Shown: one piece after another, positions 22,527-25,339 of the stretch
Numbering within the stretch: position 1 is the first letter of the stretch
Layout of the letters: every line of letters starts with the position of its first letter
Origin: Escherichia phage Ec_Makalu_002
Direction: 5' to 3' (one strand)
Sequence record: MN709127.1
DNA: 64,000 nt
Translations under genes and position numbers: made by a program
The notes under the pieces: generated by a model
Told to the model about the DNA's origin: nothing
What the model saw: only the letters and a program-made list of their open reading frames with translations
Database searches by the model: none

Positions 22527-25339
22527 GCGTGATTGAAGGGATTAACGCAATGGCGACGGATGAACACCCGCTACATTTAGCGCACCCGTCTACACTAGAA
22601 ACTAAAATTGATTCAAACGGCATTGAATGGATTTTATCAAAGCATGATGATAAATGGTATCCTAAAAAGTTTTCTGACTATCTGAAATTAAACAGACCGC
22701 AGAAAATAAGGATGCAAAGTACAGATCCAACAAATTATAAGTTCTTTAAAGATAGTGACAATATTCGCACGCGGTATATGCGATTGAAGAACTTGCGAAG
22801 GGCGAATATTAAAACTCAGTATACCCCTGAAATGATCGCAGAGTGGAAACGATGCCGTAAAGATATTGTGTATTTTGCCGAAACCTATTGCGCAATTACA
22901 CACATCGACTACGGTACAATCAAAGTACAATTGCGTGATTATCAGAAAGATATGCTTAAGATCATGCACGAAAACCGCATGAGTGCGCATAAACTATCAC
23001 GTCAGTTGGGTAAAGCACTTGATGTTAATACGCCTATTCCTACCCGTGATGGGTTTAAACGTATGGGGGATGTTAAAGAAGGTGATCAGATCTATGCGCC
23101 TAATGGTCGTTTAGTTAATGTTGTATATGCAACGGAATACCAGTATGATCGCAAGTGCTACGAGGTTGTTTTAGATACTGGCGCTAAGGTTGTTGCTGAT
23201 GCCGATCATATCTGGACGGTATACGAGAAAGTCGGTAAAAATTATGTCAAGCGTGATATTACAACTCAGGAAATGATCGATAAGGGTATTACAACCAAAG
23301 ATCAATCTCGTTTTAAAATCGCTAAGACTAAACCGATTAAGGGAGAAGCTAAAGATCTTCCGGTTGATCCGTATACTTTAGGCTATTGGTTAGGTGATGG
23401 TCACACTGATGCAGCACGAATCACCCACCATAAGGACGATAGCGGCATTCTGACGCATTTAAACGAGCAAGGATATCATACCTATACTTTTGCAGATAAA
23501 CGCAATAGCAACGTTCTCACAACGTCTGCGCATGGTTTATGGGAAGGACTTAAAACCGCTGGCGTTGCTGGCAATAAGCATATCCCTATGGAATACCAAT
23601 TCGCTGATATTGACCAGCGCACTGCCTTACTGCAAGGTATTATGGATTCTGACGGATGCATTAATAAAAATGGTTATGCTGAAATTACATTAAAACTGAA
23701 ACCGCTTATCGATGACATTTATTCGCTGTTGTGCGGATTGGGCTTTAAGCCGAAGATGAAAGAAAAAGTGGTAAAAGGTACTGTATATTACAGAATTTCA
23801 TTTAATGCATATGCAGATAAGGGTGTGTGTCCGGTTCGAATGGAACGGAAGAAAGTAAACCTTATTAATTCTTGCGAAGATACAAGAACAGATTTTCTTT
23901 TTATTCGTGAAATTAATCCGGTTGAATCCCGTCCGGTAAAATGTATTCAGGTTGACAGTGAGGATAAGCTATATCTGTGTGGTCGTGAATTTATTCCAAC
24001 TCACAATACTACCGCTGTAGCAATATTCCTTGCTCATTATGTATGTTTCAACAAAGACAAAGCTGTAGGTATTCTTGCACACAAAGGATCGATGGCGGTC
24101 GAGGTTCTAGAACGTACCAAACAAGCGATAGAATTATTACCAGACTTCTTACAACCAGGAATAGTAGAATGGAACAAGAAATCAATTGTATTAGAAAACG
24201 GATCTAGTATCGGTGCATATGCATCATCACCCGATGCCGTGCGCGGAAACTCCTTTAGTTTCATATACATAGATGAGGCAGCCTTCATTGGTTCGTGGAG
24301 TGATTGTTGGTTAGCGATCCAACCAGTAATTTCTTCCGGTCGTGAATCTAAGCTGATCATGACCACGACTCCTAACGGACTTAATCACTTTTATGATATA
24401 TGGCAATCGGCTATTGATGGTAAAAGCGGTTATGTACCTTATGAGGCGGTTTGGCATTCTGTTAAAGAACGTCTTTACAATAAAGCTGATATATTCGATG
24501 ACGGTTATGAGTGGTCATCTCAGGCGATCGCCGGATCTAGTCTTGAGCAATTCTTACAGGAACATAACGCTGAATTTTTCGGTAGTTCCGGTACTCTGAT
24601 CAGGGCAACCACACTATCAAGATTATCCTTTATTGACGTTGTTAATGATAACGGGTTTTATCAGTTTGAGAAACCGAAAGAAGGTAGAAAATATGTTGCT
24701 ACACTAGATTGCTCAGAGGGTCGAGGACAGGACTATCATGCATTGCAAATCATTGATATTACTGAATTTCCTTATAAACAGGTTGCAGTATATCACAGCA
24801 ATACTACGTCACATTTTATATTACCGGATATTGTCTTTAAATATCTCATGATGTATAACGAATGTCCAGTTTATATCGAGCTAAATAGTACGGGTGTATC
24901 TATTGCTAAGTCTCTTGCGATGGATCTTGAATATGATAATATTATTTGCGACTCATTCATAGATCTAGGGATGAAACAATCCAAAAGGTCTAAAGCAATG
25001 GGATGTTCGGCACTAAAAGACTTAATAGAAAAAGATAAGCTGATCATTAATCATAAAGGAACTATTCAGGAGTTGCGCACATTCTCCGAGAAGGGGGTAA
25101 GCTGGGCGGCAGAAGAAGGTTTTCACGATGATTTGGTCATGAGTCTGGTAATATTTGGTTGGTTAACAACTCAAGAAAAATTCGCCGAATATGCAGGAAA
25201 AGACGAAATGCGGATCGCCTCCGAAATATTCCGAAAGGAATTAGATGAATTGGGGGAAGAATACGCGCCCGTGGTAATATATGACGGTGCAAACGGCATC
25301 GAAGAATATAGGCCGCGTGAAGGTCTAACAATGATATAA
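22523..25339 (+). CDS. 17: Terminase large subunit gp17 (intein-containing precursor)
   Basis: 938 aa; flanks of the insert resemble T4 gp17 (SRQLGK / [29 protein letters not shown]...); C-terminal nuclease region also conserved. Confidence 0.9.
23015..24007 (+). mobile_element. Intein (331 aa) with LAGLIDADG endonuclease domain, inserted in the Walker A P-loop of gp17
   Basis: Insert [10 protein letters not shown]...REFIPTHN between GK and T of GKT; two LAGLIDADG-like motifs ([20 protein letters not shown]); terminal HN followed by Thr. Confidence 0.7.

Follow-up and report, generated by a model that had tools for sequence, protein, structure and literature searches.

Class 3 inteins are defined by a first residue that is not a nucleophile, by the triplet of a Trp in block B (B12), a Cys in block F (F4) and a Thr in block G (G5), and by a Ser or Thr at the +1 position (Tori et al., PMC2807308). 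Phage terminase large subunits were already among their hosts, most of these inteins are found in P-loops (Tori et al. 2009/2010, PMC2807308), and the block F Cys nucleophile has been demonstrated experimentally to be essential in the Bethlehem intein (C320; PMC2807308). Also in the DnaBi1 intein of M. smegmatis, no splicing takes place with a C118A exchange; Cys48 of this intein is needed for splicing, which was lost with every exchange tried at this position, and forms a disulfide with the catalytic Cys under oxidative stress, and the P-loop Ser has been noted to be likewise the +1 splicing nucleophile (PMC6195587). Mycobacteriophage terminase inteins belong mainly to the Terminase_1 group (Kelley et al. 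2016, PMC5050341), the terminase intein of phage LittleE has been termed class 3 in a 2025 survey (bioRxiv 10.1101/2025.01.02.630785), and terminase inteins appear in genome announcements of Salmonella myophages and Rak2-like jumbo phages. No inteins have been reported in Escherichia coli or coliphages, according to one recent paper (PMC11162368). Here, gene 17 of Escherichia phage Ec_Makalu_002 is described, which encodes the large terminase subunit gp17 and lies in a stretch of 64,000 nucleotides (nt) of record MN709127.1 that was analysed as a whole and is referred to as the window. The gene carries an insert at SRQLGK/T (slashes mark insertion sites) that is very likely a mobile class 3 intein with a LAGLIDADG homing endonuclease, a reading to which we assign a probability of about 0.9.

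The insert in gene 17

The source phage is a Krischvirus, i.e. an RB49-like coliphage of the T-even type. Over gene 17 and its neighbourhood, it has 99.9% identity with Escherichia phage Ec_Makalu_003, in which the gene is annotated as 'large terminase protein'. The precursor, whose length is given in amino acids (aa), has the following parts:

22523-25339, plus strand: gene 17 (large terminase, TerL) precursor, 938 aa, 106.9 kDa, from the list of open reading frames (ORFs) and Pfam Terminase_6N and Terminase_6C
22523-23014, plus strand: N-extein, aa 1-164, with the Walker A end ...LSRQLGK, from the gapless alignment to T4 gp17 (3EZK) across LSRQLGKTT
23015-24007, plus strand: predicted class 3 intein with LAGLIDADG homing endonuclease, 331 aa, 37.5 kDa, from alignments, Pfam and a structure model
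24008-25339, plus strand: C-extein with the first residue Thr+1 (24008-24010), by alignment both the Walker A Thr and the predicted +1 nucleophile

The insert comprises aa 165-495 of the precursor, is in frame with its 993 nt, and separates Lys164 from the Thr of the Walker A motif LSRQLGK/TT. Without it, gp17 has 607 aa and thus the same length as the gp17 of RB49 (1824-nt gene), and it aligns with the T4 gp17 structures 3EZK and 3CPE with no gap across LSRQLGKTT (E = 5e-281 to 3EZK); the Walker A motif of T4 gp17 is presumably formed by residues 161-167. The protein has the Walker A ATPase domain and the RNase H-like nuclease domain of a T4-type terminase (Pfam Terminase_6N and Terminase_6C, E = 1.5e-38 and 4e-23). 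In the precursor, Terminase_6N is recognized only downstream of the insert (aa 496-698), and LAGLIDADG_3 is found within it. The 993 nt are absent from RB49 and the other intein-less Krischvirus alleles examined, and as it is characteristic for inteins, removal of the in-frame insert restores the host protein. A preliminary description, made from the sequence alone, had proposed that a gp17 frame of 938 aa contains a 331-aa insert at 23015-24007 which splits the P-loop and the deletion of which restores GKT. The coordinates proved to be exact, and the alignment to T4 gp17 that had been suggested as a check is indeed gapless without the insert.

A group I or group II intron or another RNA element was considered as well and rejected, as there is no Rfam match at E <= 1 in the region 22400-25500 and the frame is open throughout. 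No further intein of the same family besides the one in gene 17 was detected when a hidden Markov model of the family was compared with the six-frame translation of the window.

Splicing residues, endonuclease domain and related inteins

The splicing blocks A, B (DADHIWT), F (PVKCIQVD...LYLC) and G (EFIPTHN/T) that characterize inteins are all present, and the residues of interest are located as follows:

23015-23053, plus strand: block A, with Ala1, which is not a nucleophile
23156-23158, plus strand: Cys48, counterpart of Cys48 of M. smegmatis DnaBi1 in an ungapped alignment to 6BS8
23207-23215, plus strand: block B, His65-Ile66-Trp67 (B10 His; B12 Trp of the Trp/Cys/Thr (WCT) triplet)
23933-23980, plus strand: block F, with Cys310 (23942-23944) as predicted initiating nucleophile, aligned with Cys118 of 6BS8
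23987-24007, plus strand: block G, EFIPTHN, with Thr329 (G5), His330 and Asn331

Conservation was analysed in a family alignment of 115 inteins, consisting of those excised from 114 database relatives and the window intein. His65, Trp67, Cys310, Thr329 and Asn331 are invariant (115/115 each), and His330 is found in 113 of the 115. The first residue is Ala in 111 members, Gly in three and Gln in one, and nobody has Cys, Ser or Thr at this position. The 114 relatives all have Ser or Thr at +1 (Ser in 105, Thr in 9), and all 114 have Lys at -1. Cys48 is at least 90% conserved in an alignment of 51 sequences. In block F, Cys310 pairs with Cys320 in the Bethlehem stretch Lys319-Cys320-Ile321...Asp324 and with Cys118 of DnaBi1. 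With Ala1, the complete WCT triplet of Trp67, Cys310 and Thr329, and Thr+1, the insert is by all sequence criteria a class 3 intein, and the more cautious term 'class-3-like' of the preliminary description can be upgraded. The Ala at the first position, the Trp in DHIWT, the Cys in PVKCIQV and the Thr at +1 had all been recognized there, and their interpretation as class 3 signature agrees completely with the definition of Tori et al. (PMC2807308). Only the position of the Thr in PTHN had to be corrected: it is present, but two residues before the terminal Asn, not three. Judging from the Bethlehem and DnaBi1 homologues, to which the argument is extended, it can be expected that also here the block F Cys is the nucleophile and a branched thioester intermediate is formed.

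By sequence comparison, the similarity of the insert to inteins is far beyond chance. The closest solved structures are the class 3 mini-inteins 6BS8, 6RIX and 6RIY (E = 3e-18 to 3e-17), with matches covering the first 69 and the last 28-35 residues of the intein, and the middle part matches the endonuclease domain of PI-SceI. Full-length homologues were found by tblastn in 849 phage records, many of them inside terminases. The window intein can be aligned end-to-end with the Bethlehem intein (31% identity, E = 1e-43), a prototype named 'MP-Be DnaB' in the literature that we located in gp10, aa 141-481, which is now annotated as terminase large subunit. Tori et al. (PMC2807308) had mutated in this prototype just those residues that are shared, namely His65, Trp67 and those of K-C-I-x-x-D and of T-H-N followed by Thr. 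The LittleE TerL intein is 38% identical over 331 aa. The comparison with known inteins that had been suggested at the outset thus gave class 3 inteins as best matches among solved structures (6BS8, 6RIX) and an end-to-end match with the Bethlehem intein.

The part between the splicing blocks is predicted to be an endonuclease domain:

23351-23869, plus strand: predicted LAGLIDADG endonuclease domain, about intein aa 113-285, from Pfam LAGLIDADG_3, model secondary structure, fold matches and the ratio of non-synonymous to synonymous substitution rates (dN/dS)
23378-23401, plus strand: LAGLIDADG motif 1, LGYWLGDG, intein aa 122-129, with putative catalytic Asp128; W125, L126, G127, D128 and G129 at least 90% conserved
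23627-23656, plus strand: LAGLIDADG motif 2, intein aa 205-214, with putative catalytic Asp213; L205, L206, G208, D211 and G214 invariant, D213 at least 90% conserved

Two such motifs had been noticed already in the preliminary description, and Pfam (LAGLIDADG_3, E = 1.5e-6) as well as the fold matches are in agreement with this. For an AlphaFold2 model and the analysis of motif conservation, the alignment of 51 sequences was used. The model of the intein has a predicted local distance difference test (pLDDT) value of 96.4 and a predicted template modelling score (pTM) of 0.93. In Foldseek searches against the PDB, the whole chain matched PI-SceI, TliVMA and PI-PfuI, with a template modelling (TM) score of 0.76-0.79 on the query and E = 1e-19 for PI-SceI, the splicing domain matched the class 3 mini-inteins 6BS8 and 6RIX (TM 0.78-0.84 on the target), and the middle domain matched I-DmoI. 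The insert is thus predicted to adopt a HINT fold. In the model, aa 119-264 form two alpha-beta-beta-alpha-beta-beta(-alpha) halves, as in a single-chain LAGLIDADG enzyme, and Asp128 and Asp213 at the ends of the motifs are conserved together with Lys188. The predicted architecture is that of a splicing domain combined with a two-motif LAGLIDADG endonuclease, as it is known from PI-SceI.

As to the systems described so far, the Bethlehem intein is similar in its splicing and two-motif LAGLIDADG domains (341 aa versus 331 aa in the window), the numbers of His65 and Trp67, the block F sequence K-C-I-x-x-D, the T-H-N end, Thr+1 and the terminase host, but it starts with Pro where the window intein has Ala, and its site is ...SQDQ/P...N/TKNTF and not the P-loop GK/T. 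With DnaBi1 (6BS8) and the DnaB-1 intein of M. chimaera (6RIX/6RIY), the window intein shares the 69 N-terminal residues without any gap, with ALxxDTPxPT, Cys48, H-x-W, the catalytic Cys and PTHN, and also the insertion in a P-loop where the +1 Ser or Thr doubles as Mg-coordinating residue; these inteins differ in having no endonuclease (139-146 aa), a bacterial helicase as host, and Ser at +1. PI-SceI, the yeast VMA1 intein (1VDE/1EF0), is the best overall fold match, and its LAGLIDADG endonuclease is likewise inserted in the splicing domain, but it is a class 1 intein (Cys1, Cys+1) of 454 aa with an extra DNA-recognition region and only 15-17% identity. The TerL1-a inteins of actinobacteriophages are found at the classic site in the terminase Walker A motif, with the invariant Lys on one side and the Thr on the other (PMC5050341), and the LittleE TerL intein is of the same class and has the same type of LAGLIDADG endonuclease. 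The host in the window is a T4-type Terminase_6 protein, whereas most mycobacteriophage terminase inteins reside in Terminase_1 proteins, and in the survey of Kelley et al. the P-loop site was found in Terminase_1 and Terminase_6-like inteins were found only at the C-motif (PMC5050341). Homologues that are unpublished or unannotated are present at RQxGK/T of T4-type terminases in Synechococcus phage B23 (Kyanoviridae), the E. coli jumbo phage vB_EcoM_JNE01 (Asteriusvirus) and Alishewanella phage Slicko01. Together with the intein of a metagenomic gp17 fragment (P0001), they share the class 3 markers and a length of 328-340 aa, with identities of 34-41% and, for P0001, 69%; the extein of P0001 is about 68% identical as well. 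These four belong to other phage lineages, and none is close enough to be the donor for Krischvirus.

In the literature, neither a description of the Krischvirus intein nor a match for 'SRQLGKT' was found, and none of the annotated intein-bearing records examined has an intein flag. The Krischvirus intein is thus a new and previously unannotated example of a well-known element, and ordinary in kind. In the records PP400778 (FL15), PP358550 (FL04) and PQ306574 (PTE-Eco09), the intein-bearing gene 17 is annotated as 'replicative DNA helicase (DnaB)', evidently owing to the similarity between this intein and those of DnaB.

Distribution and recombination in Krischvirus, and other selfish elements

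The full 2817-nt gene exists in 11 of about 59 Krischvirus-level records, i.e. in about one in five, and the insert is always at the identical site. The remaining records, about 48, show coverage of the exteins only, and those that were examined are shorter by exactly 993 nt. In the intein-bearing phage ELT3, the flanking 60 nt on each side of the insert do not differ from those of the intein-less phages RB49 and W115, and therefore the insertion is precise and took place without duplication. The carriers are viable isolates from Nepal, Denmark and Russia, and phages with and without the intein come from the same isolate series, namely Makalu 001/003 from Nepal sewage, MIZ from Russia, and FL from Denmark.

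Comparison of intein alleles gave an overall dN/dS of 0.06-0.13; for the endonuclease part the values are 0.07-0.10, and the C-terminal splicing part, with no non-synonymous change at all, has a value of 0. Both the splicing and the endonuclease domain are under purifying selection (dN/dS about 0.1). The inteins of ECD7 and FL15 are identical (0/993), and the extein immediately downstream differs at 70 of 508 nt; in the reverse case, ELT3 and MIZ4 have near-identical exteins (2/492, 5/508 and 8/824 differences) and inteins that differ at 42 of 993 nt. The genealogies of the intein and its host gene are decoupled, as expected of a mobile element. Taken together, presence and absence, selection and the decoupled genealogies give the picture that is expected of a mobile intein selected for both activities; they lend indirect support to cleavage of the intein-less allele and to homing, and are no proof of an endonuclease that is active at present.

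Next to the insertion site, the exteins are mosaic:

24036-24501, plus strand: highly divergent C-extein tract of mosaic sequence, shortly after the end of the intein, with a difference of about 15% to RB49, versus about 0.5% in the rest of the gene

Of 86 differences between the window and RB49 exteins, 80 fall into extein nt 446-986 around the junction. The tract has at least three haplotypes among Krischviruses and alters gp17 aa 255-280. The haplotype of the window (24100-24480) is 100% identical only to that of Makalu_003, with 89% for the next best record. The tract had been considered as a proof of homing by co-conversion, but in a comparison of 8 intein-bearing and 7 intein-less alleles it was not strictly linked to intein presence, and it was hence downgraded to a mosaic region next to the site. 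This hypervariable tract may nevertheless be the footprint of repeated homing and repair events.

The only difference between the window and Ec_Makalu_003 in gene 17 is a synonymous patch of 4 nt at 22969-23011, within the last 46 nt of the N-extein, where the Leu-Ser codons of the Walker A region read CTATCA in the window and CTCAGT in Ec_Makalu_003. Ec_Makalu_001, which has no intein and was isolated from the same sewage source, also has the CTATCA patch, and this points to a recombination breakpoint within about 20 nt of the insertion site.

Other selfish elements were seen alongside. Some Krischviruses, among them Escherichia phage vB_Eco_SAP (OZ034687; locus L002, 1501-4612), have no P-loop intein, and their gene 17 contains a different insertion of 1288 nt at the Walker B site FIYIDE/CAFIQNW, which begins with CVSGLTKV... 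and ends with ...NNVESHN/C, i.e. with class 1-like intein ends. As 1288 cannot be divided by three, two ORFs of 584 and 460 aa take the place of a continuous gp17 frame, and the first of them has a TnsA-like/endonuclease I-like nuclease domain. Since the same 1288 nt are present in 7 phage records (TB34, JK32, kaaroe, G2494, phiS and GoldenSnicker are named), they are unlikely to result from a sequencing error. A similar case is the 'fractured terminase' from metagenomes, which has an atypically split intein (Dassa et al. 2009, PMC2677866). The class 3 LAGLIDADG family to which the window intein belongs is very common also in bacterial dCTP deaminase genes, where it is found at ...EGK/SSLGR (proteins P0009-P0120), and these carriers are mostly metagenomic and labelled Acidimicrobiia and Chloroflexota. 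The family seems to target G-K/S or G-K/T sites across unrelated hosts, namely terminases of three Pfam families, Cas4/RecB-like nucleases and Dcd. In JSE (locus L014, 1-159) and vB_Eco_SAP (locus L002, 1-159), a 'homing endonuclease' coding sequence is located directly upstream of gene 15, at the position taken by gene 14 (neck protein) in the window and in RB49. The gene 14/15 position is another variable site of selfish elements near the packaging genes.

Proposed mechanism, alternatives and significance

The mechanism that can be proposed is taken from the experimentally tested Bethlehem and M. smegmatis DnaBi1 homologues. gp17 would be synthesized as a 107-kDa precursor with a broken P-loop, the ATPase of which is expected to be inactive. 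Cys310 would attack the Lys164-Ala165 peptide bond and take over the N-extein as a thioester branch, with His65 and Trp67 activating the junction, and the N-extein would then be handed to the side chain of Thr+1. Cyclisation of Asn331 would free the 37.5-kDa intein, and an O-to-N shift would remake the GK-T peptide bond, resulting in an active terminase of 69.5 kDa. Packaging probably depends on splicing, to which the insertion site and the published arguments for P-loop inteins point. The freed intein, or already the precursor, would be expected to cut the intein-less gene 17 of co-infecting relatives at the junction of CAGCTAGGGAAA and ACTACCGCTG, and the element would spread when the cut allele is repaired with the intein-bearing copy as template.

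The analysis shows the anatomy and homology of the insert, its signature residues and predicted fold, the exact presence and absence, selection and the decoupled genealogies. Several points have to be weighed against the interpretation as a mobile class 3 intein. Splicing, the branched intermediates and DNA cleavage are steps that we infer. No donor of the intein was found: its nearest relative outside the genus is the metagenomic fragment P0001 with 69% identity, and the next has 41%. The composition of the insert is the same as that of its flanks, and there is thus no compositional sign of a recent import. The divergent tract is present in the intein-less JSE and absent from four intein-bearing phages, and ordinary T4-type recombination without an active endonuclease could explain the shuffling. 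As to further sources, ECD7 was the only close copy in IMG/VR, and the complete E. coli genomes contain no similar DNA that would indicate a host reservoir. Alternatively, the intein may splice with an endonuclease that is no longer active on the Krischvirus gene 17, so that the patchy distribution would be due to vertical inheritance, occasional precise loss and the very high general recombination of T4-type phages, and not to ongoing homing. This fits with the mosaic tract being unlinked to intein presence and with Krischvirus genomes being mosaic in the gene 17 region anyway, but purifying selection acts on the endonuclease domain as strongly as on the splicing domain (dN/dS 0.07-0.10), and both catalytic Asp residues as well as the invariant Lys188 are intact. 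Furthermore, an identical intein can be followed by exteins that differ strongly, and near-identical exteins can contain different inteins, the breakpoints lying near the intein ends, and phages with and without the intein come from the same isolate series. An inactive endonuclease is therefore rather unlikely, although the thought deserves some weight.

Other alternatives concern the splicing itself. The intein may have been recruited as a conditional switch, with redox or zinc gating of splicing via Cys48 and Cys310, which would be compatible with a mobile class 3 intein. By analogy, this is conceivable: Cys48 and the catalytic Cys correspond exactly in the alignment to Cys48 and Cys118 of DnaBi1, where H2O2 causes this pair to form a disulfide that blocks splicing and where splicing needs Cys48 (PMC6195587), and the conservation of Cys48 in the family is at least 90%. 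However, the splicing requirement alone accounts for this conservation, and the intein is dispensable, as most Krischviruses live without it, and there is no evidence of a benefit for the phage, which makes a switch improbable. A splicing by another route, i.e. a class 2 mechanism in which the +1 residue directly attacks the N-terminal junction (KlbA type), or a class 1 mechanism with an unrecognised nucleophile, may come to mind in view of the Ala1 with which also class 2 KlbA inteins begin (PMC2807308). The KlbA inteins, though, are listed in the 2009 survey with the few that have neither an N-terminal nucleophile nor the WCT triplet, and Mja KlbA, the one studied, uses Cys+1 (PMC2807308), whereas the window intein has Thr+1 and the full triplet, which is invariant in the family, and is therefore not of class 2; it is also homologous over its full length to two inteins with an essential block F Cys, and another route is thus highly improbable. 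That the insert is a permanent non-splicing domain or a dead intein tolerated in gp17 can hardly be believed, as it parts the Walker A Lys from the Thr in an essential ATPase, as its splicing residues are all intact and under strong purifying selection, with no non-synonymous change in the C-terminal splicing part, and as the close relatives function without it.

Class 3 inteins have been studied so far in mycobacteria and their phages, and here the host protein belongs to the best-understood family of viral packaging motors, the T4-type gp17 with its structures and single-molecule assays, in a phage for which laboratory E. coli is a suitable host. Near-isogenic pairs are available from nature, for example Makalu_003 versus Makalu_001, MIZ4/5 versus MIZ2/3/6, and FL15/FL04 versus FL20/37/38, and the system is tractable for the chemistry of class 3 splicing, for the question whether an intein is a cost or a benefit when it resides in an essential late protein, and for homing during mixed infection. 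On a far more speculative level, the intein might not be a mere parasite: splicing could gate the maturation of the packaging ATPase via Cys48-Cys310, and the endonuclease could cut the gene 17 of rivals, which would explain also the hypervariable tract. If this improbable scenario were true, the start of packaging would depend on redox or metal conditions in the infected cell, and carriers would be favoured in mixed infections.

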